Assembly (NCBI RefSeq): GCF_024166365.1
Contig: NC_064841.1
Span: forward strand, 46,247,680 to 46,311,679
Source of the DNA: Elephas maximus
Taxonomy: Eukaryota
Reading direction: 5' to 3'
DNA length: 64,000 bases
Numbering within the stretch: the stretch's first letter is position 1; each line of letters begins with the position of its first letter. The position numbers and the translations under genes were made by a program. A model generated the notes under the pieces. It was not told the DNA's origin and made no database searches. It saw only the letters and a program-made list of their open reading frames with translations. Below, one piece after another: positions 28,834 through 62,819 of this stretch.

Positions 28834-29101
28834 ACATAAAATGATACTGCAGAGGAGTGAGCTTCTTAGCTCAAGTAGACATATGAGACTAAGTGGGCAG
28901 CTCTTGTCTGGAGGTGAGATGAGAATGCAGAGGGATACAGGAGCTGGTTGAATGGACATAGGGAATACAGGGTGGAGAGGAGAAATGTGCGGTCACATTA
29001 TAGGGAGAGCAACTAGAGTCGCTTTACAATGGGTGTTTAAGTTATTGTGTGAGAAACTGACGTGAATTGTAAACTTTCACTTAGAATGAAATAAAAAAAA
29101 A
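28834..29101 (+). mobile_element. Second copy of the last ~260 bp of the L1 3'UTR plus poly(A) (29093-29101): a severely 5'-truncated L1 inserted into the preceding poly(A), or a tail duplication
   Basis: 28834-29101 parallels 28564-28833 (GACA(G/T)AAAATGAT(G/A)CTG...GAGTGAGCTTCTT(G/A)G(T/C)TCAAGTAGACA(C/T)ATGAGACTA...GTAAACTTTCACTTA(A/G)A...(A)n). Confidence 0.55.
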
Positions 29102-30957
29102 GACAGGAGAGAAAGAAAAGACCTAAATGGGTATCAGAAGAGACTCTGAAACTTGTTCTTGAATGTCAAGTAGCTAAAGGAAAAAAGAAAAAATGATGAA
29201 GTAAAAAAGCTGAACAGAAGACTTCAAAGGGTGGCTGGAAAAGACAAAGTAAAGTATTATGATATGTGCAAAGAGCTGGAGATAGAAAACCAAAAGGGAA
29301 AAACATGCTCAGCATTTCTCAAGCTGAAAGAACTGAAGAAAAAATTCAAGCCTCGAGTTGCAATACTGAGGGGTTCCACGGGAGAAATATTAAATGACAA
29401 AGGAAAAATCAAAAGAAGATGGAATAAATACACAGAGTCACTGTACCAAAAAGAAGTGGTCGACCTTCAACCATTTCAGGAAGTAACATATGATTGGGAA
29501 CCAATGGTACTAAAGGAAGAAGTGCAAGCTGCACTGAAGGCATTGGATTAAAACAAGGCTCCAGGAATTGATGGAATACCAACTGAGATGTTTCAACAAA
29601 CAGCTACCTGGCCAAACGACAGGAAGAGATCCATATTTATGCCTATTCCCAGGAAAGGTGATCCCACTGAATGCAGAAATTATTGAACAATATCATTAAT
29701 ATCACATGCAAGCAAAATTTTGCTGAAGATCATTCAAAAGCAGCTACAGCAGTGCATCGATCGGCAACTACCAGAAATTCAAGCTGGATTTAGAAGAGGA
29801 CATCGAACCAGGGATATCATTGTTGATGTCAGATGGATCCTGGCTGAAAGCACAGAATACCAGAAAGATGTTTTCCTGTGTTTTATTGACTATGCTAAGA
29901 CATTCGACTGTGTGCCCCATAACAAATTATGGGTAACGTTGCGGAGAATGAGAATTCCAGAACACTTAACTGGGCTCATGAGGAATCTATACCTGGATCA
30001 AGAGGCAATCATTCATACAGAACAAGGGGATACTGCATAATTTAAAGTCAGGAAAGGTGTGCATCAGGGTTACATCTTTCACCATACCTATTCAATCTAT
30101 ATGCTGAGCATATAATCTGAGAACCTGGACTCAATGAAGAAGAACGGGAAATCAGGATTGGAGGAAGACTCATTAACAATCTGCATTATGCAGATGACAG
30201 AACCTTTGTTGCTGAAAGCGAAGACAATTTGAAGCACTTACTGATAAAGATCAAAGATCACAGCCTTCAGTATGGATGACACCTCAACATAAACAAAAAT
30301 CCTCACAGCAGTAACAATAAGCAATATTACGATAAATGGAGAAATTTAAAATTCTTGAAGTTGTCAAGAATTTCTTTTCACGTGGATCCACAATCAACAC
30401 CCACTGAAGAAGCATCAAGAAATAAAACAACACATTAAATTGGAAAATTCTGCTGCAAAAGACCTCTTTAAAGTGTTGAAAAGCAAAGATGTCTCTGAGA
30501 ACTAAGGTGCATCTGACTCAGGCCATGCTGTTTTCAATCTCCTTATGTGCATGCAAAAGCTGGATAGTGAATAAGGAAGACTGAATAAAAATCAACACCT
30601 TTGAATTGTGGTCTTGGTGAAGAATATTGAAGATATCATGGTATGCCAAATGAATGAACAAATCTGTCTTGGAATAATGCTCCTTAGAAGCAAGGATGGC
30701 AAAACTATGTCTCACATACTTTGGACATGTTATCAGGAGGGGCCAGTCCCTGGAGAAGGACGTCATGCTTGGTAAAGTAGAAGATCAGCGAAAAAGAGGA
30801 AGACCCTCAACGAGGTTGATTAACCCAGTAGCTGCAACAATGGGCTCAAGCGTAGCAACAATTGAGAGGACGGCACAGGGCTGGGCAGTGTTTCATTCTG
30901 TTGTGCCTAGAGTTGCTTACAGTCCAAACCAAGTCTACGACATCAAACAACAACTCC
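29102..30957 (+). mobile_element. RTE (BovB-like) LINE, 5'-truncated: RT domain and C-terminal domain, frameshifted
   Basis: ORFs 29231-29551 and 29720-30040 encode ...ALKALD*NKAPGIDGIPTEMFQ...ILLKIIQKQLQQCIDRQLPEIQAGFRRGHRTRD...FIDYAKTFDCVPHNKLW. ORF 30696-31022 encodes LTYFGHVIRRGQSLEKDVMLGKVEDQRKRGRPSTR...VAATMGSSVATIERTAQGWAVFHSVVPRVA, the RTE/BovB C-terminal signature. Confidence 0.8.
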
Positions 30958-40788: not shown

Positions 40789-41708
40789 ATTATTGAGAGT
40801 TTTTATCAGGTATGTGTGTTGGACTTTGTCAAATGCCTCTTCTGCGTCAATTGAGATGATCATGTGATTCTTTTATTTATGTGGAGAATTACATTGAATA
40901 AATTTCTAATTTTGAATCATCCTTGTATACCTGCTATGAATCCTACTTTGTCGTGGTGTATTTTTTGTGATATAATTCTGAATTCTATTGGCTAGAATTG
41001 TGTTGACAATTTTTGCATCTATATTCTTTAGAGATATTGGTCTCTAATTCTCTTCTTTCATGGTGTCTTTGCTTAGTTTTGGTATTAGGGTTTTGCTGGC
41101 TTCATAGAGTGAATTCAAAAGTATCCCTTCCTTTTCTATGTTATGAAAGAGTTTCAGTAGTGCTGGTGTAAGCTCTTCTCTAAATAATTCAGAGAATTCT
41201 CCAGTGAAGCAATCTGGGCTGGGTTTTTTTTTGGTTGTTGTTTGGAGGTTTTTTAAATTAACTTTTTGATCTCTTCTCTAGTTATGGGTGTGTTCAGATT
41301 CTCAACATCATTTTGCATTAGTTTGGGTAGTTAGTGTGTTTCTAGAAATTTGTCTATTTCCTCTAGGTTTTCAAACTTGGTGGGGTATAGTTTTTTCATA
41401 GTACTCTGTTATGATCCTTTTTATTTCAGTTGGATCTGTTGCAATGTCACTCATTTCATTTCTTATTTGGGTTATTTGTGTCTTCTCCTATATTTCTTTT
41501 TGTCAGTTTGGCCAGTGGTTTGTCGAGTTTGTTGATCTTTTCAAAGAACCAACTTTTAGTTTTGTTGATTCTATTGTTTTTCTATTCACTATTTCATTTA
41601 CTTCTGCTCTGATCTTTATACTTTCCTTTTTTCTTTTGCTGTTCTCTTTGTATTTCCTTGAGTTATGTAGCTAATGTTTTGATTTTGTCCCTTTTTTCTT
41701 TTTTGATG
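40789..41708 (-). mobile_element. Older L1, ORF2 fragment B (region N-terminal to the RT core); continues fragment A across the nested full-length L1
   Basis: 40790-41700 is colinear with 35760-36690 of the full-length L1 at ~80% identity. Its low-coordinate end (rc ...DAEKAFDK...) and the high-coordinate end of fragment A (...TLNKLGI...YIKAIYDKPTANIILNG) are adjacent positions in L1 ORF2. Confidence 0.75.
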
Positions 41709-44700
41709 TAACACAATGTTTTTATAACAGGTCAAATTCTGTTGTCTTAATCTACTTGAATGAAAGCAACTGTATATTGATTTCTCTTGTCTGATTGGGG
41801 GAACTTGTGCATTCTTGCTAGCCAAGGTTACTTTGAAAACCTGAAATGCTTTTGTAGACATGTACTTAAATGAGTAAAGTCTTATTTTCTCTGTGTGAAA
41901 ACTTGTAAGGAATATGCCCACCCATGTAGGACAAAGTACAGTGTGAAAACAAGAAAAACTCTGGTGGCTTCACGTGCTCAAACAGGAGAAAGGGTTCATC
42001 CTTTTCTCAACCAAATAATGTATAAGGAACATTCCTCAGCATATAACACAAAGTGTTTTTTGATAACAAGGAAAATGTGACTTCATCTACTTGAATATGA
42101 GAAACTGTATGTTTGTTTCTCTTTCATGTAATGTCTTAGGAATGTTTGCATCATTGAAGGCCAAGGCTTACTTTGAAAACCTAAAAGCATTTTGACATTC
42201 TCTGCTTGCACAAGCGAAATTCTACATCATTTTCTCTTTCCGTGTAACACAAAGCACAGTTTGAAACCAATAAGCTCTGATGGCTTCGCACACTTGAATG
42301 GCAGAAATTGTCCATTCTTTTCTGAATCAGAGAATGAATAGGGAACATTCCTGTTCATGTAACACAGTGCTTTAATAACTTTCGTCTTAATATTCTTGAA
42401 AGAAAGGAACAATATTGGCTTCTCTTTCTTGCATGGTTTGGGAACTTTTGAGTGTTTTACACCATGCTTTACTTTGAAAACCTAAAGCGCTTTTGCCGTC
42501 ATGTGCTTGAATGAAGAAAACGCTACATTGTTTTCTTCGCAGAATATATAGGGAGCAATTATGTCCGTGTAACACACATGCAGATTGAAAACAATAAAAC
42601 TCTAATGGCTTAATGTACTCAAATGGAAGAAAGTTTACACTGTTTTCTCAATCAGAGAACCTGTAGAGAACATTCCTGTGCATGTAACATACAGTGTTTT
42701 TGGATAACAGGCAAAAGGCTTGTGGCTTCATCTACTTGAGTGAGAAAACTGTATATTTGTTTCTCTTTCATTCAAAATATTGTGAACCTTCATGCCATTG
42801 TAAGTCAAGGTTTACTTTGAAAACCTACAACAATTTTAACCTCCTGGACTTAAATGGGAGAAACTGTACCTTATTTTACCCTCAGAGAATGTCTTGAGCA
42901 TTCCTGTCCTTGTAAAACAAAGTGTGCTTTGGAAATGAGTAAAGCTCTGGGGTCTTCATATACTTGCATGAGAGTATCAGCACAGTCTTTTTGCAGTCAG
43001 GGAATATATATGGAACATTCACATGTAACACGATTGGGCTTTTTTTAAAAAACAGGTAAAATACCTATGACTTCCTCTACTTCGATGAGAGAAACAGTAC
43101 ATTGATATTGGGAATTTAGTGCTCCTGAAAACTGAAGTTTATTTTGAAAAGCTAAAACACTTTGCTGTCATGTACTTGAATGGGAGAAACTCAACACTGT
43201 TTTCTCCTTCAGGGAATGTGTAGGGGACATTCACGTCAGTGTAACACAAAGTAGAGTTTGAAAAGTTGTCAAACCCTAGTGGCTTCACATACTTGAATAG
43301 GAGAAACTGAACATTGTTTTCTCAAGCAGGGAATGTATAAGGAACATTCCCATCCTTGTAAGTGTACTTCGAAAAGAAGTAAAACTCTGGTGGTTTCATG
43401 TACCTGAATTGGAGAAATCGAACATGCTTTTTGAAATCAGAGAATGTATAGGTAACATTCTCGTGCCTAGAACACACACTGTGTTCTTTGATAATAGGTA
43501 AAACCCTTGTGAATTTATCTACTTGAATGAGAGAAACTACATTTTCTTCTCTTTCATTTACTGGGAACTTTTCCATCCTTTTAAATCAAGATTTACTTGG
43601 CAAACCTAAAACTCTTCTGCCATCCTGAACTTGAGTGGAAGAAACTACCTCATTTTCTCCATCAGAAAATATAGTGCGAACTTTCAGGTCCTTGCAACAA
43701 GAGGTGTACTTAGAAAACAAAACGGGTGGCATGCATGTGGAGTGGGGAGGACCTGTACATTATATTCTCATTCACAGAATGTAAAGACAACATCCTCATG
43801 CACATAACACAAAGTGTTTTTATATAACAGGTAAAATGCTTTTGATTTTCTGAACTTGAAATCGAGTTGGGAACTTGGTTTCCCGTTCAAACAACATATT
43901 GGTAACTTTCGATTCTTGTAAGCCAAGTTTTGCTTTGAACACCTAAAACGCCTTTGATGTCATGTACCTGAAATGGAGAAACTGTCCATTGTTTTCTCCT
44001 TTAGAGAATGCAGTGTGAACTTTCCAGTAATGGATACACAAGAGTACTTTGAACACAAACCAATCTTTGATGGCTTCATGGACTGGAACGGGAGGAGCTG
44101 TACTTTCTTTTCTCAATCATAAACTGCAAAGGGAACATTCCAGGGCATGTATCACAAAGCAATTTATACAACAGATAAAACGCTTGTTACTTTATCTACT
44201 TGAAGGAGAGAAACTATTTACTGGTTAATCTTTCCTGCAACGTATTGGGAACATTTGCATTTTTGTAATTCACGGTTTGGTTGAAAACCTAAAATGATTT
44301 TTCTGTCATGTACTCAAACAGGTGAAACTCCACACTGTTTTCTCCTTCAGAGAATATATAGAGAACATCACTTCCGTGTAACACAGGTGCAGCTTGAAAA
44401 CAAGTAAATGACTGGTATCTTCATGTATCTGAGTGGGAGGAACTGTGCATTCTTTTCTCAATCACAGAATACATAGGGCACATTCCCATGCATGTAACTC
44501 AAAGTGACTTTTGATAACAGATGACTTCATCTACTTGAATGAGAGCAACCATACTGGTTTCTCTTTCAGGCAGTGCAGTGGGAGCTTTTGTGCTCCTGTA
44601 GACCAAAGTGTACTTTGAAAAGCTAAAGCATTTTGCCATCACGCACTTCAACTGGAAAACCTCTACACTGTTTTCTCCTTCAGAGAATGTGTAGGGAACA

Positions 44701-47700
44701 TCATTTCTGTGTAACACAAAGTGCAGTTTCAAAACAAGTAAATCACTGATGGCTTCACATATTTGAATGGGAGGAACAGTGCAATCTTTCTGCAATCACA
44801 GAAGGTATAGGGTACATTCTCGTGCATGTACCACAAAGTGCTTTTTCATAAGAGATGACTTCATCTACTTGAATGAAAGGAACCATACTGGTTTCTCTTT
44901 CATGCAATGTATTGGGAACTTTTGCGTTCTTGTAAACCAAGTTTTACTTTGAAAATCTAAAATGCTTTTGCCATCATGCAATTGGACAAAAAACACCCTA
45001 CACTGCTTCTGCCTTCAGAGATTGTATAGGGAACTTTCAAGTCTGTGGATGACAAACTGCAGTATGAAAATAAGTAAAACTGTATTGGCTTCACGTGAAA
45101 GGGAGGAACTGTCTGTCCACCACTTTCTCAAATAATGTTTAATGAACATTCCCCAGTGTGTAGCACAAATAGTATTTTGATAACAGGTGAAACACCTATG
45201 ACTTTATCCACTTGAATGGAAGAAAGCATATGTTGCTTTCACTTTCCTGAAACATATTTGGAATTTTCACATCCTTCTAAGCCAAGTTTTAAATGGAAAA
45301 TCTAAATGACTTTTGTCATCAAAGACTTGAACAGGAGAAACTTTACATTGTTTGCTCCATCAGAAAATGTAGTGTCACCCTTCCAGTCCTTACCACACCA
45401 AGTATACTTTGAAAACAAGTAAAACTCTGGTGGCTTCGCGTACTTCAACGGGAGAACCTCTCAATTCTTTTCTGAATCTGAAAATGTATATGGAACATAC
45501 CTGTCCATGTAACACAGTGATTTTATAACTTTTGTCTTAGTCTGCTTGAATGAAAGCAACTGTATATTGGTTTGTCTTTCTTGTTTGGAGAACTTGCGTG
45601 TCCTTATTGGCTAAGGTTTGCTTTGAAAACCTGAAATGCTTTTGCTATCATGTACTGAAATGGATACTGTCTACATTGTTTTCCCTTTGTGAAAATGTGT
45701 GAGGAATATGCCCGTCTGCCTAAGACAAAGTGCGGTAAGAAAGCAAGTACAACTCAGTTGGCTTCATGTACTCGAACGGGAAAAAGTGTTCATCCTTTTC
45801 TCAACCAAATAATGTATAAGGAACATTCCCAAGCATGCAACACAGAGTGTTTTTTGATAACATTAAAATGCTTGAGTATGAGAAACTGTATGTTTCTCTT
45901 TCATGTAGTGTCTTGGGAACGTTTGCATCCTTGAAGGCTAAGGTTTACTTTGAAAACTTAAAAGTGTTTTGACATCATCTGCTTGCACAAGGGAAATTCT
46001 ACATCATTTTCTTTTTCTGAGGATATATAGGAAACAATCACTTCCGTGTAACACAAAGCACAGTTTGAAACCAATAAACTCTGGTGGCTTCATACACCTA
46101 AATGGCAGAAACTGTCCATTCTTTTCTGAATCAGAGGATGAATGGGGAGCATTCCCATCCGTGTCGCACAGTGTTTTAATAAATTTTGTCTTAATATTCT
46201 TGAATGAAAGAAATGATATTGGCTTCTCTTTCTTCCGTTGTCTGGGACCTTTCACATGCCTTACACCATGCTTCTCTTTGAAAACCTAAAAAGCTTTTGC
46301 TGTCATGTATTTGAAGGAAGAAAACTCTACCTTGTTATCTTCTTCAGAGAATATACAGGGAACAATTATGTCCTTGTAACACACGTGCAGACTGAAAACA
46401 GTAAAACCCTGGTGGCTTCATGTCCTCAAATGGGAGAAAGTTTACATGATTTTCTCAATCAGAAAACTTATATGGAACATTCCTGTGCATGTAACATGGG
46501 ATAACAGGCAAAAAATACTTATGACTTCATTTACTTGAGTGAGAGAAACTCTATATTGGTTTCTTTTTCATTCAAAATATTCTAAACTTTCACATCGTTC
46601 TAGGCCAAGCTTTACTTTGAAAGCCTGCACCACACTTTTACCCTCCTGGACGTAAACGGGAGAAACTCTACCGGGTTTTTACCTTCAGAGAATATGTCTT
46701 GAGCATTCCCATGCTTCTAACACAAAGTCCACTTTGAGAACAAGTAAAGCTCTGGGGGCTTCATATACCTGTATGAGAGTATCTGCACAATCTTTTTCGC
46801 AATCTGAGAATATATATGGAACATTTATGTTCAACATGTAACATGACTAGTTTTTCTTGCGGAACAAGTAGAAGGCCTGTGACTTCCTCTACTTCACTGA
46901 GAGAAACTGTATGTTGGTACTGGGAATTTTGCGTTCTTGAAAGCCAAGGTTTATATTGAAAAGTTAAAAAGCTTTGCTGTCATGTACCTGAACGGGAGAA
47001 ACTTGACACTTTTTCCTCCTTCACAGAATGTGTAGGGAACATTCCTGTCCTTGTAACACAAAGTATACTCTATACAAGTAAAACTCTGGTGGCTTCAAAT
47101 ACCTGAACTTGAGAAACTGTGCGTGCCTTTCACAATAAAAATGTACAGGCAACATTCCTGTGCCTGGAACACACACAGTGTGCTTGTGAATTTATCTACT
47201 CGAGTGAGAGAAATTTATCTACTCAAGTGAGAGAAACTGTACGTTTTCTTCTCTTTCAAATAGTTCTTGGGAGCTTTCCCATCCTACTAAACAAGATTTA
47301 CGTGGAAAACCTACAACGTTTCTGCTGTCTTGAGCTTGAACAGAAGAAATAAATGACTTTGTTTCTCCCTGAGAAAATGTACTGCAAACTTTCAGGTCCC
47401 CGCAATACAAAGCTTACTTTGAAAACAAGTGAAACTGGAGGCTTCATGTATGGAATGGAAGGAACTGTACATTTATTTCTCAATTGGAGAATGCAAAAGT
47501 AACACTCCTGTGCATGTAACACAATGTTTTTATATAACAGGTAAAATGATTTTGGCTTTCTCTACTTGAATGTGAGAAACTACATATTGCTTTCTTGTTC
47601 AAACTTTCAATTTTTGTAAGCCAAGTTTTATTTTGAACACGTCAAACACCTTTGCCATCGTGTACTTGAAAGGAGAAACTTTCCATCCTTTTCTCAATCA

Positions 47701-47997
47701 GATAATGTATAAGGAACATTCCCCAGTGTGTAACACAAAGTGTTTTTTGATAACAGGGAAAACATTTGTGACTTTATCTACTTGATTGGGAGAAAGCTTT
47801 CTCTTTCCTGCAATGTGTATGGAATTTTCGTGTCCTTGTAAACCAAGGTTTAAATGGAAAATCTAAATGTCTTTTGCCGTCACGGCCTTGAATGGAAGAA
47901 GCTCTGCATAGTTTGCTCCTTCAGAAAATGTAGTGCCAACCTTCTAGTCCTTATAGCGCCAAGTATAGTTTGAAAACAAATAAAACTGTCCTAAGCT
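41709..47997. repeat. Satellite B: ~115-bp monomers in ~345-bp trimers; ~3.8-kb higher-order repeat, ~1.65 copies; inverted relative to satellite A
   Basis: Monomer: GTAACACAAAGTG(C/T)A(G/C)TTTGAAAACAAGTAAAACTCTGGTGGCTTCA(T/C)GTACTTGAATGGGAGAAACTGTACATTGTTTTCTC(C/A)(T/A)TCAGAGAATGTATAGGGAACATTCCTGTCCAT. Trimer period, e.g. 44478 to 44820, is 342 bp. Long-range markers repeat at 41705/45520, 42705/46502, 43040/46850 and 42960/46790, i.e. every ~3.80-3.83 kb, at ~85-90% identity. Confidence 0.85.
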
Positions 47998-48674
47998 TTC
48001 AAATTTAGAAAACAGATTTTGGAAGGTGTTTGGGTGTCTCTGAAGAGAATCTGTAGTTGTGTCTTTAATGGAGATATAGCCTGTCCACACATATCTGTAT
48101 TTACACATATACAACCTCTTCTCACATATAAATACTCCTGCACCTACCTATATAAGTATATGCCTATACCAATATTTTATTAGTTTCCTATATATGTCAA
48201 ATTCTTTGGTACAGGCATTCTTTTCTCATGAATGTTTCTCAGCAGCATCATTTACTTTGGTTGTTCTGCACTCACTACATCCACATTCAGTGCCTCTTTT
48301 CCCATCACCAACAAGAGCATACTTCTGCCTTCATCCCTTCCCCGCCCTTGGAAACCACCATGAAAATTGGTTTCTTTATATATGTCTATTTTTGTCTTCT
48401 TATAAAAGAGAGATCATACAGTATTGGTGCTTATGTGCTTGACTTACCCACTCATCTGTCAGTTTGTTGCACTGGGGAAGTGTTGTTTCCTCAAAGTAGA
48501 GTCACTCTTAATGACATGGATGGAATAAAGCATTCAGGACCTACATTTGCTGATGTGGCATGAATCAAAATTAGAAGAAACAACTGCAAACATCTGTTTT
48601 TAATTGGAACATGGAATTTATGAAGTATGAACCTAGGAAAATTGGAAAAAATGAAAGTTGTCAAAAGTGAAATG
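47998..48674. other. Short non-satellite spacer between satellite B and the next L1
   Basis: No periodicity; contains small ORFs only (48194-48442, 48228-48563), with no recognisable domain. Confidence 0.4.
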
Positions 48675-48682
48675 GAGATGAG

Positions 48683-48693
48683 GCCAAGGTGGC
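48683..48693 (+). promoter_or_regulatory. YY1-like initiator motif GCCAAGGTGGC at the L1 5' terminus
   Basis: Within the first 20 bp of the element; same position as the motifs at 2628-2640 and 40770-40781 (both minus strand). Confidence 0.4.
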
Positions 48694-50145
48694 AGAATAG
48701 TCACACACTTCATGTCATCCCTCTAACAACAAAAAACCTGAAAAAACAAGTGAATTGGATATACGTGACAATCTAGGAACTCTAATCATCAAATACAAAA
48801 CAAAAAATCCAAATGAGTGGCAGGTAGAAAGAAAGACAATTCAAAAACAGCAGAAATAGGGAATTATGGATTGCTGGATTGCTGGTGTCCTGCTAGCTGA
48901 ATCTGCACTGCAGTCTGAAGAAAGCAGCAACATCCCAAGCTGAAAATCCACCCCATCTGGTGCAGCCAAGCAGCAGCAAATCCACGTGCACCTCCAGAAC
49001 CAAACAGGAGGGACACCAGACCTGAGGAAGTTAAGTGTAAGGTCCCAAACTACTGCATGCACGACATAACCCTACCCCTAACGGAGCTCCATGGCTGAGG
49101 GGTACTGCCTTCTCCTCGTCTATCCCCCTTCCTGCTCTAACACTAGTCCCACAATATTTAACACTGCCACACCACCTAAGCCAAGAACTCATGGCTGGGA
49201 CCAGAGGCACCCGCTCCTTGACCCAGCTACTGGCGCAGGGAGTCCACAGACTTGCAGCACCCTTCACTGCCACCAATCACCAGTGCCAGGGCCTTGCTGG
49301 CTGATTCAGCATGGCATACCCTCATTAGGAAAAAATGGGCAGCCCATCCACCTGAATCACATTTTTACATGCAGCAGCCAAGAGGGCACTGAAAATTTGT
49401 GACATTTAACACCACCTAAGAAGGGACCTCACCCACCCACACCAGGGGCCTGAGGGCCACCCACAACAGGGAACTGAGAATTAGTGGCGCCTCCCAATTC
49501 CTCCAGTCAATGGCACTGGAAGCCCAAGGACTGGCTGCAGTACCCTTTTCCAACTATGTGCTCAAGCAAACAGGCACAAGCCCTCCAGCTAGACACTTGG
49601 GAGCAGTTGTGAACCCCCTACCTTGCCCCTCACATAGCTTCCCAGCTGCAACCAGAGACCTGTGCCTGCTCCAAACTCCACACAGCTCTGCTCACCCAGG
49701 ACAGTAGGTGAGAATCTCCACACCACACACTTGGTTACTGACAATCTTGCCACCTGCACCCTGAACAATTGATAAGCATACACATAACACCCAAGCCACA
49801 TAACACCCAAACCAACAACCAGGAAGAACACCCCCTGCACCATAGGCCAGGTGAAAAGTAGGACAGATTCATCACTTCACCAAAAATCTCTGGCAACATC
49901 ATCAGCACCCCTGCAAGAACAGTGAACATACTCCCAGCCACACATGAAGTAGCTTCTGTTTTGACCACCTGGAGAGAGGAGGTGACAGTTTCAGTGATGC
50001 CAATGACCAAAGCAGCATGCACACCCAGCTTACTAGGACATAGCAAAACAAAACAAAATACAGGATGCAGTAAACAAAAATACAATAAATAAATAAAATA
50101 TAATAACATATTGATGGCTTGAAGGTAGCAAAAACAAACCATTGC

Positions 50146-50292
50146 AGTTGACTCAATTCCAACAGATAGCGACCCTAGAGGACAGAATAGGACTGTCCTA
50201 TAGGATTTCCAGGGAGCGGCTGGTGGATTTGAACTGCCAATATTTTCGTTAGCAGCGGTATCACTTCACCACTGTACCACCAGGGATAACAG
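50146..50292 (-). mobile_element. AfroSINE-like tRNA-derived SINE nested in the L1 5'UTR
   Basis: rc reads GCTGTTATCCCTGGTGGTACAGTGGTGAAGTGATACCGCTGCTAACGAAAATATTGGCAGTTCAAATCCACCAGCCGCTCCCTGGAAATCCTATAGGACAGTCCTATTCTGTCCTCTAGGGTCGCTATCTGTTGGAATTGAGTCAAC. Confidence 0.7.
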
Positions 50293-50319
50293 CTAATATC
50301 AAATCACATAAAGAAGCAG

Positions 50320-51076
50320 AACAAGATGGCTCCAGGAAGCAACCAAAATAAAGAACCAGAAAATCTTCCAGAGGAAGAAAAGGCAATAGAACTACCTGAA
50401 CAAGAATTCAAAAGACTAATAGAGATTTCATAAATATCAAGAAGGAGATCAGGCAAAACTCAGACCAAACTAAGCAACACAGAGACAAAGCAATAGAAAA
50501 TTCAGGAAAGCTATACAAGAACAAAATGACAGAACGAACAGCTTTAGAAACCATACAGAGACAGCAACTAGAAATCCAAAAGGTTAACATCAGACAACTC
50601 AATAGAAGGTCATAGAACAGAACTGAGACAATGGAAGTCAGAATCAGTAAGACTGAAGATAAATCACTTGACAACAAGTTGAGGAAAAATCAGAAAAAAG
50701 AATGAAAAAAATGAAGAAAGCCTAAGAATTATGTGGGATATTATCAAGAGAAAAGCCTATGAATGATCACAGGACCAGAACAGGGGAAGATAACAGAAAA
50801 TACAAAGAGAATTGTTGAAGATTTGCTGGCAGAAAACTTCCCTAATATTGTGAAAGATGAGAAGATATCTATCCAAGAAGCTCAATGAACCCCATATAGG
50901 ACAGACCACAAAAGAAAGTCACCAACACATATCAAAACCAAACTTGCCTAAACCAAAGGCAAAGAAAGAATCCTTAGAGTGACTAGGGATAAACAAAAAG
51001 CCACCTACAAAGGAGAACCAATAAGCCTAAGCTCTGACTACCCACCAGAAACCATGCAGGCAAGAAGGCAATGGGA

Positions 51077-51140
<64 letters not shown>

Positions 51141-51300
51141 CCTTGAAGGAAAGAAATTCCCAGCTGAGAATTATATATCCAGCAAAATTGTCTCTCAAAT
51201 ATGATGGCAAATTCCATCATTTTCAGATAAACAGAAACTAAGGGAATTTGTAAAAACCGGCCCAAGTTACAAGAAATATTAAAGAGAGGCCTTTGACTCG
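50320..51300 (+). pseudogene. L1 ORF1 remnant (internal stops; interrupted by an (AT)n microsatellite)
   Basis: MAPGSNQNKEPENLPEEEKAIELPEQEFKRLIEIS*...QARRQWDD-(AT)30-KALKERNSQLRIIYPAKLSLKYDGKFHHFQINRN*. Confidence 0.75.
51078..51137. repeat. (AT)30 microsatellite inside L1 ORF1
   Basis: Perfect AT dinucleotide run. It generates the IYIYIY ORFs on the minus strand (50983-51210, 51038-51265). Confidence 0.95.
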
Positions 51301-53216
51301 AGAACCAACAACATCAGACAACAATCCAAGACTAGGACACAGTCCAGATCAACCAGATCCTGACCCATATAGGGAATTCACAAAAATAAAACAAAGCTAA
51401 AAGACTGAAAATAAGGAATCAGAGACATAATATGTAAACAACAGAATCATCAAAACAAAAAAGATGGAATAAAGAGTATAGTCATAGAACTGCCATAAGG
51501 AGAGGAAGTCAAGACAATATCAAGAAATAAAATACTGGTTTAAACTTAGGAAAATAAAGGTAAATTTTAAGCTACCCATCAAAATTCAAAAAAAAAAAAA
51601 ACTCAGCAAACACAAAATCAACAATAATGAAAATAAAATATATAAAGAAAAACATATCAGCACAAAAAAATTAAGTGGAAAAAAGAAACTGTCAAAACCA
51701 CAAAAAAAAAAAAGACAGCAGTAAACTCATACCTATCAATAACTACAGTGAATGCAAATGGACTAAATGCACCAATAAAGAGACAGAGAGTGGTAGAATG
51801 GATTAGAAAAAAAACACAATCCATCTATATGCTGCCTACGAGAGACACGCCTTACACTGAAAGACACAAACAAAAACTCAAATAATGGAAAAAAATTTAT
51901 CAAGCAAACAACAACCGAAAAAGAGCAGAAGTAGCAATATCAATCTCTGACAAAATAGACTTTAAACAAAATCCACCACAAAGGATAAGGAAGGAAACTA
52001 TACAATGATTAAAGTGTCAGTACACCAGGAGGACATAACCATAGTAAATAGGTATGCACCCAATGAAAAGGCTCCAAAATACATAAAGCAAACTGACAGC
52101 ATTGAAAAGAGAAATACACTTCTCCACAATAATAGTAGGAGACTCCAATACACCACTTTGGTGAAGGACAGAACATCTAGAAAGAAACTTAGTAAAGATA
52201 CAGAAGATCTAAATGCCACAATCAATTTGATCTTGTAGACATATACAGAACACTCCACCCAACAGCAACCAAGTACACATTATTTTCCAACACTCATGGA
52301 ACATTCTCAAGAATAGAATAGACCACATATTAGGCCATAAAGCTACCCTTAACAGAATCCAAAACATTGAAATATTACAAAGCATCTTCTCTGCTCATAA
52401 TACCATAGAAGTAGAAACTAATAACAAAAACAGCAAGAAAAAAAATTGAATATATGAAAACTGAGCAACACCTTGCTTAAAAACTACTGAGTGATAGAAG
52501 AAATCAAGGATGGAATTTAAAAATTTATAGAATCAAATGAAAATGAAAACACATCTTACCAAGTTCTTTAGACATGGCAAAAGCAGTCCTTAGAGGCAGA
52601 TTTATAACAATAAACACACACACCAAAAAAGAAGAAATGGCCAAAATCAAGACATTAATGCTACAACTTGAACAAATAGAAAGAGAGCAGCAAAAGAAGC
52701 ACTCAGGCACCAGAAAAAAGGAAATAATAAAAATCAGAGCAGAAAAAATGCAATAGAGAACAGAAAAACAATTGAAAGAATCAACAAAACTGAAAGCTGG
52801 TTCTTTGAAAAGATCAACAAAATTGACAAATCATTGGCCAAACTGACAAAAAAAAAAAAAAAAACAGGAGAGGAAGAAAATAACCCAAATAAAAAAAGAG
52901 ATGGGCAATATCACAACAGACCCAACTGAAGTAAAAAGCATTGTAACAGAATATTATGAAAAATTGTACTCCAACAAATTTGAAAACATAGAGGAAAAGG
53001 GCAAATTTCTAGAAACTCACTACATACCTAATTAACACAAAATGAGGTAGAAAAACTAAACATAACAAAAGAAGAGATTGAAGAGGTAATAAGAAAAAAA
53101 AAAAACTCCCAACAAAATAAAGCCCTGGTCAGCTTCACTGGAGAATTCTACCAAACTTTCAGAGAAGAGCTAACACCAATACTACTCAAACTTTTTCAGA
53201 GCATAGGAAAGGAAGG

Positions 53217-53973
<757 letters not shown>

Positions 53974-54153
53974 TAGAAAACCAGTCAACATAATCCACCA
54001 CATCAATAAAACATAAGAACCACATGACCTTATCAATCAACAGAGAAAAGGCATTTGACAAAATCTAACTCCCATTACAGGTAAAAACTCTTAACAAAAT
54101 AGGAATAGATGGGAAATCCCTTGACATAATAAAGAGTGTCTACACAAAACCAG

Positions 54154-54320
54154 AAAAACCCTGGTGGCATAGTGGTTAAGAGCCATGACTGCTAACCAAA
54201 AGGTCAGCTGTTCGAATCCACCAGGCGCTCCTTGGAAACCCTATGGGGAAGTTCTACTCTGTTCTCTAGGGTTGCTATGAGTCGGAATCAACTTGATGGC
54301 AATGGGGTTTTTTTTGGTTT
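54154..54320 (+). mobile_element. AfroSINE, first of a tandem pair
   Basis: AAAAACCCTGGTGGCATAGTGGTTAAGAGCCATGACTGCTAACCAAAAGGTCAGCTGTTCGAATCCACCAGGCGCTCCTTGGAAACCCTATGGGGAAGTTCTACTCTGTTCTCTAGGGTTGCTATGAGTCGGAATCAACTTGATGGCAATGGGG(T)n. Confidence 0.85.
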
Positions 54321-54332
54321 ATACAAAACCAG

Positions 54333-54500
54333 GAAACCCTGTTGGAGTAGTGGTTAAGAGCTACAACTGCTAACCAAAATGTCAGCAGTTTGAATCCACC
54401 AGGCACTCCTTGGAAACTCTATGGGGCAGTTCTACTCTATCCTATAGGGTAGCTATGAGTCAGAATTGATTCAACAGCAATGGGTTTGGTTTTGGTTTTT
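54333..54500 (+). mobile_element. AfroSINE, second of the tandem pair
   Basis: GAAACCCTGTTGGAGTAGTGGTTAAGAGCTACAACTGCTAACCAAAATGTCAGCAGTTTGAATCCACCAGGCACTCCTTGGAAACTCTATGGGGCAGTTCTACTCTATCCTATAGGGTAGCTATGAGTCAGAATTGATTCAACAGCAATGGG. Confidence 0.85.
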
Positions 54501-56894
54501 ATACAAAACCAACAGCGAATATCATTCTAAATTGAGAGAGACAAAACTTTCCCCTTGAGAAGGGAAACCAGACGAGGATGCCTTTAAAACCATTCTTATT
54601 CAGTATTGTGCTGGAAGTCCTAGCTAGAGCAATAAGGCAAGAAAAAAAAAAAGGCATCCAAACTGATGAAGAAGAGGTAAAATTATCCCTATTCAGAGAT
54701 GATATGATCTTATACAGAGAAAACCCCAAAGAATCCACAAGAAAGTTACTGGAACTAACAAAAGATTTCAGCCAAGTACCATGATAAAAGATTAACATAC
54801 AAAAATCAGTTGGATTCCTCAACACCAAAAAGAAAACTTCAAAAATCACCAATTCAATACCATTTACAATAGCCCCCAAGATGATAAAGTACTTAGAAAT
54901 AAATCTAACCAGCTTCATAAAAGACATATACAAAGAAAACAATAAAACTGTACTGCAAGAGACCAAAAGAGATCTACATAATTGGAAAAACATGCCATGA
55001 TTGTGTATTGGAAGACTGAACATTGTGAAAATGTCAATTCTACCCAAAGTGATCTACAGACACAATGCAATACTGATCCCAATTCCAACTGTACTCTTTA
55101 ATGAGATGGAGAAGCAAATCACCAACTTTATATGGAAAGAGAAGAGGCCCTGGGTAAGTAAACCATTACTGAAGATGAACAAAGTGGGAGGCTTCACATT
55201 ACCTTCCTTTAGGACCTATAATACAGCCACAGTAGTCAAAACAGCCTAGTACTGATACAACAGACCAATGGAACAGAATAGAGAACTTGGAGGTAAATCC
55301 ATCCATATATAAGCAGTTGATATTTGACAAAGGGCCAAAGTCAGTTAAGTGGGGAAGACAGTCTCTTTAATAAATGGTGCCAGCATAACTGGGTATCCAC
55401 CTGCAAAAAAGTGAACAAGATCCATACCTCACACTGTACACAAAAACTAACTCAAAATACTTCAAAGACCTAAATATAAACTGATAAAGATCATGGAAGA
55501 AAAAATAGGGACAAGGCTATGGGCCATAACACATGGAATAAATAGTATATAAGCCATAACTAACAATGCACAAACACCAGAAGATAAACTAGATAACTGG
55601 GAGCTCCTAAAAATTAAATATTTATGCTCATCAAAATACTTCACCAAAAGAGTAAAAAAAGAACCTACAGAATGGGAAAAATTTTGGGCTACAGCACATC
55701 CAACAAGGGTATAATCTTTAAAATCTAGAAAATGCTTCAACACCTCAATAACGAAAAGACAAGCTGATTTAAAACTGGGCAAATGATCATTATGCTGAGT
55801 GAAATTAGTCAGTCGCAAAAGGACAGATATTGTATAACACCACTATGATAAGAACTGGAGAAATAAACAGAGAAGAAAATATTCTTTGATGGTTACAAGA
55901 AGGGGGAGGGAGGGAGGGAGAGGGGTATTCACTTATTAGATAGTAGATAAGTTTTTAATTTTAGGTGAAGGGAAAGACAACACACAATACAGGAGAGGTC
56001 AACACAAGTGGACTAAACCAAAAGCAAAGAAGTTTCCTGAATAAACTGAACTCCTCATAGGCCAGCATAGGGGTGGGGGTTTGGGGACCATGGTTTCAGG
56101 GTCCATCTAAGTCAATTGGCATAATAAAATCTATTAAGAAAACATTCTGCATTCCACTTTGGAGAGTGGCATCTGGGGTCTTAAAAGCTAGCAAGCATCC
56201 AAGATGCATCAATTGGCCTTAACCCACCTAGAGCAAGAAAGAATGAAGAACACCAAAGACACAAGGTAATTATGAGCCTAAGAGACAGAAAGGACCACTT
56301 AAACCAGAGGCTACGTCTGCCTGAGACCAGAAGAACTAGACGGTGCCCAGCCACAACCTATGGCTGCGCAGACAGGGAACTTAACAGAGAACCCCTGAGG
56401 GAGCAAGAGAGCAGTGGGGTGCAGACCCCAAATTCTAGTGAAAAGACAAGACTTAATGGTCAGACTGGGACTACAAGGACCCCGGAGGCCATGGTCCCCA
56501 GACCTTCTGTTAGCCCAAAACAGGAGTCATTCCCAAAGCCTACTCTTCAGACAGGGATTGGACTGGAATATGGGATGGAAAATGATACTGGTGAAGAACG
56601 AGCTTCTTGGATCAAGTAGACACATGAGACTATGTTGCATCTTCTGTTTCGAGGGGAGGTAAGAGGGCAGAGGAGGCCAGAAGCTACCCAAATGGACACA
56701 AGGAGAGAGAGTGGAGGGGTGAACTGTGCTATCTCATTAGAGGGAGAGCAATTAGGAGTGTATGGCAAGGTGTTGTAAATTTTTGTAAGAGAGTGACCTG
56801 ATTTGTAAGTGAAATTTAAAGCACAATAAAAACTAAATTTAAAAAAAAAAAAAAGAATGAAAGGGGACATCACTGCAGATCCCACGGGCACTGA

Positions 56895-57224
56895 AAAGAT
56901 GAGAGATTAGTATGCTACATATAATATTGTACAGCCAGAATGCTCCTCAGAAGCAAAGATGGCAAGACTCTGTTTCATGTACTTTGGACATGTTATCACG
57001 AAGGACCAGTCCCTGGAGAAGGACATCATGCCTGGCAGAGTGGAGGATCAGCAAAAAAGAGGAAGACCCTCAATAACATGAATGACACAGTGGCTACAAC
57101 AATGTGTTCAATCATAACAATGATTGCAAGGATGGTGCAGGACTGAATAGTGTTTCATTCTATTGTACATAGGGTTGCTATGAGTTGGAACTGACTCAAT
57201 GGCACCTAACAGCAACATGTTTCA
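56895..57224 (+). mobile_element. RTE (BovB-like) 3' fragment (C-terminal ORF region and tail)
   Basis: ...VQPECS*EAKMARLCFMYFGHVITKDQSLEKDIMPGRVEDQQKRGRPS...VATTMCSIITMIARMVQD*IVFHSIVHRVAMSWN*L; ends ...CACCTAACAGCAACATGTTTCA. Confidence 0.7.
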
Positions 57225-58897
57225 TATGCCAGTACATCTGACACCATAAAGGAATTGGACAAATTTCTTAAAAAGCAAAACTGACACAAAATAAACAAGA
57301 AAATCTGAAAAATAAAAATGGGCAAATGATATGAACAACCACTCACTAAAGAAGACATTCAGGTCACCAACAGACATATGAGGAAATGCTCACGATCATT
57401 AGCCATTAAAGAAATGCAAATCAAAACTATGATGACATACAATCTCATTCAAACAAAAATGGTGCTAATCCAAAACACACAAAATAACAAATATTGAAGA
57501 AATTGCAGGGAGATTGGAACACTTATGCACTGCTGTTGGGAATGCAAAATAGTACCACCACTTTGGAAAATGATGTGGCTCTTCCTTAAAAAACTAGAAA
57601 CAGACATATCATATGATTCAGCAATCCCACTCCTAGGAATACACCCTAGAGAAATAAGAGCTGTCACATGAGTATACGTATGCACAAGCATGTTCACTGG
57701 TGCAATATTCACAATAACAAAAATAGAGACAACCTAAATGCCCATCAACAGAGGAATGGATAAACAAATTATGGTACATTCACACAATGAAATATTATGC
57801 AACAATAAAGAACAATGATGAATCTGTGAAACATCTCACAACTTGGATGAATCTGGAGGGCATTATGTTGAATGAAATAAGTCAGTCACAAAAGGACAAA
57901 TACTGTATGAAACCACTATTATAAGAATTCAAGAAAAGGTTTACACACAGAAATAAACAATCTTTGATGGTTATGGATGAGGGGAGGGAGAGAGAGGGGA
58001 AATCACTAACTAGATAGTAGACAAATGTCAACTCTGGTGAAGGGAAGAACAACACACAATATAGGTGATGTCAGCACAAGTGGACAAAAGCAAAAGCATA
58101 GAGGCTTCCTAGACACACCCAAACACTTTTAGGGGCCAAGTAGCAAGGGTTAGGTGCTGGAGACCATAGTCTGCAGGGACATCTAGTTCAATTGCCATAA
58201 CATAGTTCATAAAGAAAATGTTCTACATTCCACTTCAGTGAGTAGTGTCTGGGGTTTTAAAAGCTTGGGAGCAGCAATCTAAGATACAATCTATTGGTCC
58301 TATCACATCTGTATCAATGGAGAATGAAGGAAACTTTGCAAAGACACAGGGAAAATATTAGCCCAAAGGACTAAGAGACCACATGAAGGAGAGAATCCAC
58401 CAGCCTGAGACAAGAAGAACTAGGTGATGCCTGACTACCAATAACCGCTCTGACAGAGATCACAACAGAGAGTTCCCAAGAGAAGAGCAGAAAAATGTAG
58501 AACAGAATTAAAGTCCACAAAAAAAGACCAGATTTACTGGTCTGACAGAGACTGGAGGAACCCCTGAGACTATGGCCCCCAGACACTCTGCTTTCCTGAA
58601 GCCTACTTTTCAAAGTTAGAGAACCCTATAAAACAAAAAAAATAATACAAGTGAGGAACATGCTTCTTAGTTCAATCAAATATATGAGACCAAATAGGCA
58701 ACTCCTGTCCAGAAGCAAGAGAAGGCAGAAAGGGACAGAAACTGGACAAATGGGCACAGGGAACCCAGGGTAAAAAAGGGGAGCTTGCTGGCACATTGTG
58801 GTGATTGCAATCAATGTCACAAAACAACATGTGTAAAAATTTTTGAATGAGAAATTAACTTGAGCTGTAAACTTTCACCTAAATAAAATAAAATTGT
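57225..58897 (+). mobile_element. L1 3' fragment (internally deleted ORF2 joined to ORF2 C-terminus, ~1-kb 3'UTR)
   Basis: ...ELDKFLKSKTDTK | ...KWANDMNNHSLKKTFRSPTDI...MTYNLIQTKMVLIQNTQNNKY...[41 protein letters not shown], then a 3'UTR colinear with 27840-28820 that ends ...GTAAACTTTCACCTAAATAAAATAAAATTG. Confidence 0.8.
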
Positions 58898-60147
58898 AGA
58901 AAAATGAAATGAGATCCTTCAAGATCGACATCTTAGGCATTAGTGAGCTGAAATGCACTGGTATTTTGAATTGCACAGACATATAGTCTACTATGGTGGG
59001 AATGACAAATTGAAGAGGAACGGCATTGCATTCATGTCAAAAAGACCATTCAAGATCTACCCTGAAGTACAACTCTGTCAATGATAGGTTTATATCCATA
59101 TGCCTACAGGGAAGGCTAATCAATACGACTATTATTCAAATAGTCGCACCAACCACTAAGGCCAAAGGTGAAGAAATTGGAAGATTTTTACCAACATCTG
59201 TAGTCCGAAATTGATCAAACATGTAATCAAGATGAATTGATAATTGCTAGCGATTGAAATGCAAAAGTTGGAAACAGAGAAGAAGGATCAGTAGATGAAA
59301 AAGACAGCCTTGGTGACAGAAACGACACTGGAGATCACATGATAGAATTTTGTCAGACCAGCAACTTATTCACAGCAAATACCTTTTGTCAACATGAACA
59401 GTGACTATACACATGGACTTTGCCAGATGGAATACACAGTAACCAAATTAACTACATTTGTGGAAAGAGATGACTGAGAAGCTCGATATCATTAGTCAGA
59501 ACAAGGCCAGGGGCCAACTGTGGAACAGACCATCAAATGCTTGTATGCAAGTTCAAGTTGAAGCTGAAGAAAATGAAAACAAGCCCATGGGTCCAAAGTA
59601 GGACCTTGAGCATATCCCACCGGAATTTGGAGACCATCTCAAGAATAGATTTGGTGCACTGAACATTAATGACCAAAGACCAGAAGACTTGTGGGATGAC
59701 ATCAAGGACTTCATGTATGTAGCAAGAAAAAGGTTATTAAAAAGACAGCAAGGAAAGAAAAAAAAAAAAAAAAGATTGCAGAAGAGACTTGGAAACTTGC
59801 TCTTGAACATAGAGTAGCTAATGTGAATAGAAGAAATGATGAAGTAGAAGAGCTTTACAGAAGACTTTAGAGGGCAACTTGAGAAGAAAAATTATTATAA
59901 TGAAATGTGCAAAGACACGGAGTTAGAAAACCAAAAGGTAAGAACATGCTCAGCATTTCTCAGGCTGAAAGAACTGAAGGAAAAATTCAAGCCTTGAGTT
60001 GCAATACTGAAGGATTCTATGGGCAAAAAACTGAACAATGCAGGAAGCATCAAAAGAAGATGGAAGGAATACACAGAGTCACTGTACCAAAAAGAACTGG
60101 TCGACATTCAGCCATTTCAGGAGACAGCATGTGATCAAGAACCAATG

Positions 60148-60618
60148 ATGTCATGGGCTGAATTATGTCGCTCCAAAATGTGTGTATTGATTTGTCTGGG
60201 CCATGATTCCCAGTATTGTGTGGTTGTCCCCTATTTTGTGATTGTAATTTTATGTTAAAGAGGATTGGAGTGGGATTTTAACACCCTTACTAAGGTCACA
60301 TCACTGATCCAATATAAAGTGAGTTTTCCTGGGGTGTGGCCTGCACCACCTTTTATCTTACAAGAGTTAAAAGGAAAAGAAAGCAAACAAAGATTTGGGG
60401 GACTTCATACCACCAAGAAGGCAGCACCGGGAGCAGAGCGAGTCCTTTAGATCCGGGGTCACTGCACAGAGGAGCTCCTAGTTTGAGGGAAGACCAGTGA
60501 GAAGACTTACAGAGGAGAAAGCCTTCCCCTGGAGCTGACACCCTGAATTTGGACTTTTAGCCTACCTTACTGTGGTGTTTGTGGTATTTCTGTTATAGCA
60601 GCACTAGATAATTAAGAC
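60148..60618 (+). mobile_element. MaLR-type solo LTR nested in the RTE, with a 5-bp target-site duplication CAATG/AAATG
   Basis: The RTE copy at 29480-29530 is uninterrupted at this point (CCAATGGTACTAAAGGAAG). Here the insert lies between CCAATG and GTATTGAAGGAAG. The insert ends ...GGTATTTCTGTTATAGCAGCACTAGATAATTAAGACAAATG and is ~75% identical to the LTR at 53217-53733. Confidence 0.65.
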
Positions 60619-60664
60619 AAATGGTATTGAAGGAAGAAATCCAAGTTGCAACGAAGGCATTGGC

Positions 60665-60683
60665 AAAAAAAAAAAAAAAAAAA
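60665..60683. repeat. (A)19 homopolymer, expanded from the ATTAAAA present in the other RTE copy
   Basis: GGCATTGGCA(A)19CAAGGCTCCAGG here versus GGCATTGGATTAAAACAAGGCTCCAGG at 29545-29572. Confidence 0.9.
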
Positions 60684-62078
60684 CAAGGCTCCAGGAATTG
60701 ATGGAATACCAACTTAGATGTTTCAACAAACAGATGCCCTTCTGGAAGCCATCACTCATCTATGCCAAGAAATTTGAGAGACAGTTACCTAGCCAATCTA
60801 CTGGAAGAGAGCCATACTTGTGCCCATTCCAAAGAAAGGTGATCCAACAAAATGCAGAAATCACCAATGTCATTAATATCACAAGTAAGTAAAATTTTGC
60901 TGAAGATAATTCAAAAATGGTTGCAGCAGTACATAGACAGGGAGCTACCAGAATTTCAAACCAGATTCAGAAGAGGAGAGGAAACAAGGGATAACATTGC
61001 TGATGTCAGATGAATCTTGACTGAAAGCAGAGAATACCAGAAAGATGTTTATCTGTGTTTTATTGACTATGCAAAGACATTTGACTGTGTGGATCATAAC
61101 AATTATGGATAATATTGTGAAGAACGGGAATTCCAGAACACTTAACTGTGCTCATGAGGAACCTGTACATAGACCAAGATGCAATCTTTCGTACAGAACA
61201 AGAGGGTACTGTGTGGTTTAAAGTCAGTAAAGATGTGTCAGGTTTGTATCTTTTCACCATAGTTATTTTGTCTGAATGTTAAGCAAATAATCCAAGAAGC
61301 TGGACTATATAAAGAAGAATGTGGCATCAGTATTGGAGCAAGACTCATTAACAACCTGTGATATGCATATGACACAAATTTGTTTGCTGAAAGTGAAGAT
61401 TACTTGAAGCAGTTACTGATGAAAAAAACTACAGCCTTCAGGATGGATTACACCTCGACATTAAAAAAAAGAAATCCTCACAACTGGACCAATAAGCACC
61501 ATCGTGATAAACAAAGATTGAAGTTGTCAAGGATTTCATTTTACATGGATGAACAATCAATGCCCATGAAAGCAGCAGTCAAGAAATCAAACACATTGGG
61601 CAAATCTGCTGCAAAAGATCTCTTTAAAGTGTTAAAGAGCAAAGATGTCACTATTTTAAATCACCCCATATGCATGCAAAGCCTGGACAATGAATAAGGA
61701 AGATGGAAGAAGAATTGATGCCTTTGAATTGTCGTGTTGGTGAAGAATATTGAATACACAATGGACTGCAGAAGAATGAATAAATCTATCTTGCAAGAGG
61801 TACAGCCAGAATGCTCCTTGGAAGCAAGGATGTCAAGACTTCACCTTATATACTTTGGACATGTTATCAGGAGGGACCAGTTCCTAGAGAAGGGCATCAT
61901 GCTTGGTAAAGGAGAGGATCAGTGTAAAACAGATGGACCCTCAACCAGAAAGACTGACACAGTGGCTGCAACAAGGTGCTCAAACATAGCAACGATTGTG
62001 AGGCTAGCACAGGACTGGGCTGTTGTACCTAGGGTTGCTGTGAGTCTGAACTGACTGGACAGCACCTAACAACAATGT

Positions 62079-62340
62079 GCTTGACTTATTTCACTTAGCA
62101 TTATGCCCTCCAGGTCCATCCATGTTATAGTATGTTCTTTATAGTTTTGTAGTATTCCACTGTATGTATGTACCATGTTTTGCTTATTCATTCATTTGCT
62201 GATGGGCACTTCCCTTGTTTCCATTTTTTTTGCTATTGCAAATAAAGCTGCAATCAACAAAAGAGTGCATATATCTGTTTGTGTCACTACTTTTAGATCT
62301 CTAGTGTACATCATTAGGAGTGGGATTGTTGGATCAATGT
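62079..62340 (-). mobile_element. L1 ORF2 C-terminal fragment in antisense orientation, abutting the RTE 3' end
   Basis: Colinear with the antisense text of the full-length L1 at 33840-34110 (TGACTTATTTCACT...CATCCATGTTAT...TTCTTTATAGTT...ACTCCATTGTATGTATGTACCA...GCTATTG(T/C)(G/A)A...GCTGCAAT(G/C)AAC). Confidence 0.6.
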
Positions 62341-62815
62341 CCGTTGTAGCACTTTTCACAATAGCCAAAAGTTGGAAACAACATAAATGTCAATAAACAG
62401 ATGAATGGATAAACAAAATATGATATACGATCAAATACCTTTCAGCCAAAAATAAAAATCATGTCCTGATATAAGCCGCAACATAGATGAACCTTGAAAA
62501 CTTTACACTGAGTTGAAGTCAAACATAAAAGGACAAATACTGTATGAACTCACTTATATGAAATAAGTAAATATATAGAAACCAAAGCTTATTAGAGGTT
62601 TCCAGAGGTTGGAGAGAGGGAGGAGGAAAGGAGAAGATTTTGCTTAGAGGGCACTGAGTTTATGTTAATGGTGGTGGAAGAATTAGGAAAAAGATAAGGG
62701 CATGAGTTGTGCAACATGAGGAGTGTAATCAATGTCCTTGAATTGTACACATAGAAACTGTTGAATTGGTGAATGTTTTGTTGTGTATATTTTCACCACA
62801 AAAATATATATATGC
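62341..62815 (+). mobile_element. L1 ORF2 C-terminus plus short 3'UTR, sense orientation (older subfamily)
   Basis: VVALFTIAKSWKQHKCQ*TDEWINKI*Y...KDKYCMNSLI...; the 3'UTR ends ...GTATATTTTCACCACAAAAATATATATATG, typical of older L1 3' ends. Confidence 0.6.
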
Positions 62816-62819
62816 AATG

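Follow-up and report, generated by a model that had tools for sequence, protein, structure and literature searches.

A 64,000-nt stretch of the Elephas maximus genome (NCBI RefSeq assembly GCF_024166365.1, contig NC_064841.1, forward-strand positions 46,247,680 to 46,311,679; hereafter the window, to which all coordinates refer) carries at 41706–47990, on the + strand, a tandem array that we call array B. Our analysis suggests that this array is probably a relic of an ancient afrotherian satellite of the TMAsat family, in which a 3.8-kb block stands in two copies that go back to one ancient tandem duplication, and that it is now inert and not a working higher-order repeat (HOR). It is well supported that B is a decayed TMAsat-family array with two diverged 3.8-kb copies, that it was remodelled by unequal exchange and that it is bounded by L1 elements. 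The message for annotation is accordingly that of a decayed satellite relic, neither an active nor an unusually long HOR.

Two diverged copies of a 3.8-kb block

Iterated nhmmer profiles, seeded with one trimer, decompose the array into 56 monomers of ~105–118 bp each, which, two irregularities aside, follow one another as T1-T2-T3 and make up 19 trimer units of 216–442 bp (312–360 bp for the regular ones), with a trimer period of ~335–345 bp. The consensus sequences of T1, T2 and T3 measure 115–117 bp and are 73–81% identical pairwise (z of 15–19 against shuffles), and the real monomers share on average 65% identity within a type vs 56% between types, which together indicate that the three monomer flavours and their arrangement in ~345-bp trimers are real. 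The extent of the array was drawn from this decomposition, from unit and monomer identity matrices and from composition (GC 37%, CpG observed/expected 0.30). Across the 160 non-partner pairs of the 19 × 19 trimer matrix, mean identity is 66.2% (sd 2.4, maximum 72.0), and it stands at 0.668, 0.672 and 0.663 for units one, two and three apart. Adjacent trimers, which the initial annotation had put at ~70% alike, are by this measure about 66–67% identical.

Against this background, several views of the array point to a longer period. A histogram of 12-mer offsets peaks at 3790–3800 bp, and 30 of the 56 monomers find their best partner 3.7–3.8 kb away. Self-BLAST aligned 45507–47158 with 41706–43350 at 78.5% identity over 1696 columns, with other registers at about 65%. 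At the level of units, partners 11 apart are 78% (1-12), 78% (2-13), 83% (3-14), 79% (4-15), 75% (5-16), 73% (6-17) and 71% (7-18) identical, and units 11 and 19 pair at 78%; seven of these eight partner pairs lie above the maximum of the background pairs. When the order of the units was permuted, the observed off-diagonal mean was reached in only 2 of 20000 trials. The comparison by which the proposed 3.8-kb period was to stand or fall, that between identity at the 3.8-kb offset and identity at the trimer offset, comes out in its favour, the former being higher, and the nested monomer, trimer and 3.8-kb periodicities of the initial annotation are thereby borne out by the nhmmer decomposition, both matrices and the permutation.

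The two copies are less alike than had been thought. Counting substitutions only, partners are 83.0% identical vs 75.3% for the background, and with indels included the values are 77% vs 66%; the Kimura two-parameter divergence (K2P) from copy to copy is 0.195. Global MAFFT alignment of 41706–43361 with 45507–47167 gave identity in 77.8% of columns and 82.5% of aligned bases, that of 43362–43985 with 47072–47690 in 67% and 73%, and that of 45113–45429 with 47679–47990 in 79% and 82%. The out-of-register control, shifted by six units, reached 61% of columns and 66.5% of aligned bases; it is the only shift used, as three others either slid onto the true partner or overlapped and were excluded. 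The best 1.66 kb thus stand at 77–78% of columns and 82.5–83% of aligned bases, short of the ~85–90% first estimated, and the alignment originally suggested, 41709–44190 with 45520–47997, yields 67% of columns and 79% of aligned bases, its low identity being due to a deletion in copy 2.

Copy 1, delimited by BLAST self-alignment and unit partners, spans 41706–45506 (+) and comprises units 1–11. It counts 34 monomers, i.e. 11 trimers and one extra T3, rather than the 33 originally proposed. The extra T3 (43362–43466) lies in a T3-T3 tandem at 43252–43466 (+), which nhmmer resolves and Tandem Repeats Finder (TRF) reports as a repeat of period 111 with 1.8 copies at 76%. Copy 2 has a single T3 opposite this tandem, and there the offset between the copies falls from about 3801 to about 3700 bp. 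Units 8–10 of copy 1, at 44150–45161 (+), are unmatched in copy 2; in the unit matrix their mutual identity exceeds background (74% for 8-9, 76% for 9-10), and TRF finds a 334-bp repeat at 81% over 44327–45094.

Copy 2, as placed by BLAST, the unit and monomer matrices and MAFFT, spans 45507–47990 (+) and holds units 12–19, about 23 monomers. It is colinear with units 1–7 and 11 of copy 1 and lacks an equivalent of about 43980–45113. Its end at 47990 corresponds to copy 1 position 45429, which lies within a T3, 77 bp before the end of the block. Where the missing interval would be, a three-way alignment and BLAST revealed a recombinant T2/T3 monomer at 47620–47731 (+), which on its 5' side matches the T2 of unit 7 (43922 onwards) and on its 3' side continues as the T3 tail of unit 10 (45113–45161), with the switch point in a conserved GAGAAAC...TTTTCTC core; BLAST aligns 47679–47987 with 45113–45426 at 79%. 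Because copy 1 is regular over the same interval, this is most simply read as a loss of 1.13 kb from copy 2, and the ancestral block would then have had about 11 trimers and 3.8 kb, as the initial annotation proposed. What it counted as ~1.65 copies are hence two, the second shortened by the 1.13-kb deletion, by one T3 and by ~77 bp. Copy 2 also carries a young 23-bp tandem microduplication in a T1 monomer, at 47189–47236 (+; TRF, 2.1 copies at 96%).

One family with Satellite A and TMAsat

'Satellite B' had been annotated as a satellite of its own. Our results place it in the same ~345-bp family as 'Satellite A', which occupies two stretches of the window on the minus strand: 5859–18168, made up of subfamilies A1a (5859–8586) and A2 (8596–18168), and 23878–26714, made up of subfamily A1b, which abuts an L1 at 26714. 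Both were delimited with a trimer hidden Markov model (HMM) built from the 19 trimers of B and with identities between groups. The B profile gave full-length, colinear minus-strand matches throughout both stretches, with E down to 2e-39, which shows that A and B are one family in opposite orientations. In total, the trimer family fills about 21 kb of the 64-kb window in three subfamilies. Mean identity in profile columns is 0.68 for B-B, 0.59 for B-A1, 0.54 for B-A2 and about 0.75–0.77 for A1-A1; of the subfamilies in the window, B has decayed furthest. Satellite A is far less decayed, with neighbouring units 75–82% identical; A1 (GC 37%) lies at both of its ends and A2 (GC 42%) in the middle, and A2 has multi-unit offsets of about 845, 1346, 2200, 3539 and 4382 bp at 79–82% identity.

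The family extends beyond the window. TMAsat is the centromeric satellite of manatees and the dugong, and its consensus and monomers are printed in a supplement (PMC8421680). The B trimer HMM matched both halves of the published TMAsat (TAREAN) consensus on the reverse strand (E of 4e-18 and 2e-14) as well as two genomic T. manatus monomers (E of 2e-15 to 5e-13), with no match in 200 shuffles. Single-monomer profiles recovered a T3-T1-T2 order in TMAsat, so each TMAsat half (332 and 355 bp) corresponds to one trimer, colinear with that of B, and the trimer is therefore older than the split of this lineage from Sirenia. The homology needed profile searches to be seen, as plain BLAST against TMAsat returned only matches of 24–75 bp, and the TMAsat PCR primers are absent at up to three mismatches.

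B resembles TMAsat in the length of its unit (312–360 bp vs 332 bp for TMAsat1 and 355 bp for TMAsat2) and in the best-conserved element common to both, GAAAGAGAAA...TTCTC. The differences are an identity of only 54–57% over the profile columns, an orientation opposite to that of the published consensus, a GC content of 37% vs 45%, and the lack of an alternating two-unit (687-bp) order, there being no excess of identity at the two-unit offset. A CENP-B box-like motif, TTCGNNNNANNCGGG, occurs 45 times at up to two mismatches vs 46.6 expected and is not spaced periodically within the array. In elephants and hyraxes, TMAsat-like arrays have been described that are divergent, count up to 18 units and in most cases have L1 at their flanks (PMC8421680); array B, short and L1-flanked like those of elephants, fits this description. 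The same authors, Valeri et al., describe the two TMAsat halves only, without a ~115-bp substructure (PMC8421680).

A scan of metagenomes with a gapped pattern specific to the family yielded 13 loci, none of which was matched by the trimer profile; we rejected them as family members and regard them as chance matches. A literature search with k-mers of the satellite found no paper, and neither did one for an afrotherian telomere-to-telomere centromere paper.

What is new here is limited to three points: the 3 × 115-bp substructure of the family, the union of A and B with TMAsat, and the case made below against derivation from L1. Satellites A and B of this window and the sirenian centromere satellite are by this link joined into one old family.

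Origin of the two copies

The reading that we favour runs as follows. The amplified unit is a trimer of ~335–345 bp, composed of three diverged ~115-bp monomer types, and drift has left the trimers of array B about 66% identical. Eleven trimers form a 3.8-kb block that stands in two tandem copies, now 77–83% identical; these would have arisen through a single duplication, perhaps by unequal crossover or by replication slippage, some tens of millions of years (My) ago. Neutral substitution rates are in the range of 1–2.2e-9 substitutions per site per year, and at such rates the K2P of 0.195 would date the duplication to roughly 45–100 My ago. Copy 2 would subsequently have lost 1.13 kb when a T2 and a T3 recombined unequally at the conserved dyad core, an event of which the hybrid monomer is the trace; one T3 monomer and the 23-bp microduplication further distinguish the copies. 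Since the duplication, array B would have seen no homogenisation, presumably lying in inert heterochromatin of the pericentromeric type.

Some observations tell against this account. The divergence between the copies is uneven, with K2P ranging from 0.11 to 0.28 per unit (heterogeneity chi-square p = 0.003), while one clean event with neutral decay thereafter predicts a uniform divergence; the discrepancy could stem from gene conversion or from misalignment. The rate behind the age estimate is an assumed one. Moreover, with two copies, a lone duplication and the remaining two periods of a once longer HOR array look the same.

This last point leads to a possible, if rather doubtful, alternative: that B is the stump of a genuine multi-copy HOR array, for example a former centromere core, whose 3.8-kb unit of 33–34 monomers was once homogenised and of which L1s and rearrangements left two copies that then decayed. 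One mark of an HOR, a fixed series of diverged monomers that is repeated as a set, is present here, as units 1–7 and 11 recur in order as units 12–19, so that the order of eight units has been kept between the copies. The family is moreover centromeric in sirenians (PMC8421680), the window is packed with three subfamilies and with L1s as pericentromeres are, and an L1 cuts off the array on its left side. On the other hand, an HOR is commonly held to have at least three tandem copies and this array has exactly two, at 77–83% identity, and no + strand array continues past either flank, a profile search having found no + strand family member in the window outside 41706–47990. The array also stops no more than 77 bp from where a block would be complete and so contains almost exactly two blocks, a coincidence of about 4% had it been cut at random, which weakly favours a single duplication. 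To speak of an HOR, as the initial annotation did, is in our view an overstatement for two copies at a K2P of about 0.20, more alike than the background but far from the near-identity of homogenised HOR arrays; a one-off duplication explains them equally well. Under either origin the array is a relic and not an active HOR, and of a kind already known.

The dyad core at the deletion joint invites a bolder reading. The dyad GAGAAA-N6-14-TTTCTC occurs 28 times in the window vs 0.19 expected, in the satellite arrays only (for example at 42099–42121, 43301–43323 and 13089–13111); no part of the monomer is better conserved in either B or A, TMAsat has it too, and the joint of the copy 2 deletion falls within it. 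Hairpin folding of the monomer consensuses gave weak z-scores (-3.7, -1.3 and -0.6), and the predicted stability is modest. It is conceivable, though we consider it unlikely, that the trimer with its invariant GAGAAAC-N8-11-GTTTCTC dyad was the ancestral centromeric architecture of Paenungulata more than 60 My ago, with TMAsat as its living centromeric descendant and B as the fossil of a 34-monomer HOR from a former (repositioned) centromere, the dyad core being a functional element (non-B DNA or a protein site) as well as a preferred point of exchange.

It appears very improbable to us that B is no satellite proper but a piece from inside a transposable element that expanded in tandem. An L1-related origin was suggested by Valeri et al., who found L1-flanked arrays in 9 of 10 cases in L. 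africana and 15 of 16 in E. maximus (PMC8421680), and in our window the B and A1b arrays each abut an antisense L1 fragment of the second open reading frame (ORF2). Yet when monomer, trimer and TMAsat profiles were run with nhmmer --max against the part of the window outside the satellites, 42 kb made up mostly of L1, the best E was 0.19. Between the two L1-satellite junctions, the breakpoint is shifted by about 154 bp on the L1 side and by about 70 bp on the satellite side, and the adjoining satellites are 59% alike vs 73% for the L1 parts; with such offsets and unequal identities, the junctions are not copies of one composite element. The share of the window that the family fills, about one third in three subfamilies, also speaks against an origin of this sort. 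This lack of similarity to the neighbouring L1s argues against the view of Valeri et al. that the non-sirenian copies are merely L1-related. Least credible of all, to the point of being negligible, is a 3.8-kb periodicity that arose as a chance effect or an assembly artefact, given the permutation and partner-pair results above and copies set apart by about 20% divergence and by structured indels, differences that an assembly duplication would not create.

Surroundings of the array and comparison with known systems

The left edge of array B is abutted by a 5'-truncated L1 of the ORF2 region at 41126–41709 (-), which is 75.7% identical to the + strand L1 at 52620–53216. The right edge, at ~47990, lies inside a T3 monomer beside sequence derived from transposable elements: a non-satellite spacer at 47991–48675, without a match to the satellite profiles, in which BLAST within the window found a small minus-strand L1 fragment (48357–48446). 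An L1 that BLAST traces from its 5' end follows at 48680–64000 (+). The initial annotation had L1s bounding the array on both sides; this is right for the left and about 0.7 kb off for the right.

The L1 cut positions at the A1b (26714) and B (41706–41709) junctions are similar, about 154–174 bp apart. We considered the A1b/L1 and L1/B junctions as arms of one inverted duplication and rejected this, since the junction positions differ and the satellites are less alike than the L1 parts.

A second L1 5' end, at 2639–2523 (-), matches that near 48680. Beside it, a GC-richer stretch contains a 238-aa ORF with internally repeated peptide motifs (1803–2519, +), and another L1 5' region holds a 269-bp tandem repeat in two copies at 77% (28562–29106); both may be tandem repeats of L1 5' untranslated regions. 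The + strand L1 contains a perfect (AT)29.5 microsatellite at 51079–51137 and is interrupted by Afrotheria-type short interspersed elements (AfroSINEs) at 50129–50285 (-) and at 54150–54490 (+, two in tandem), and a further copy lies at 23326–23479. The tandem pair, which by its sequence we take to be AFROSINE, ends in (GGTTT)n-type tails. Such a tail is listed for elephant AFROSINE (PMC6007223). The AfroSINEs, together with a satellite family reported from Paenungulata alone, point to an afrotherian host, in all likelihood an elephant-like paenungulate. The AfroSINE 5' end AAAACCCTGGTGGC (54145–54173) resembles the T3-specific motif AAAACTCTGGTGGCTTC with a profile E of 0.19, probably by chance.

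Searches for other known elements were negative in their several scopes. Rfam gave no family match and ARAGORN no tRNA, and the ORFs of array B do not exceed 106 aa, the longest being without a homologue in a protein search. Three ORFs of the window had no exact match among known proteins, and a search with the L1 reverse transcriptase returned only anonymous ENA metagenome fragments, 60–75% identical; the best of these contigs is 71–76% identical at the DNA level, which is uninformative. Even with three mismatches allowed, the window has no copy of the elephant CENP-B-like box CTTTGCCGAGAACGGAG. The sloth satellite SATCHO1 (117 bp), considered for the length of its monomer, was set aside; its primers bear by eye no likeness to B, and no search was made.

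Other paenungulate satellites with long units include a 936-bp centromeric repeat of elephant (Alkan et al. 2011, as cited in PMC4053949) and the ~2.6-kb elephant heterochromatic repeat EMAM1/LAFM1 (OP918028 / OP918029; PMC9952010). B is like them in this respect, a likeness of description only, and the 2.6 kb of EMAM1/LAFM1, close to eight trimers and to the length of copy 2, is a comparison of lengths only.

In primate alpha-satellite, homogenised HOR cores lie between old layers of diverged monomers that hold many L1 insertions, and the copies of active HORs are typically 95–100% identical. B shares with this system its nested monomer and multimer periods, a fixed order of units, hybrids from unequal exchange and an old layer with L1 insertions. 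Its sequence is unrelated to alpha-satellite, and unlike the active HORs it has two block copies only, about 78–83% identical. On the alpha-satellite scheme, then, B would resemble a decayed outer layer and not a core.

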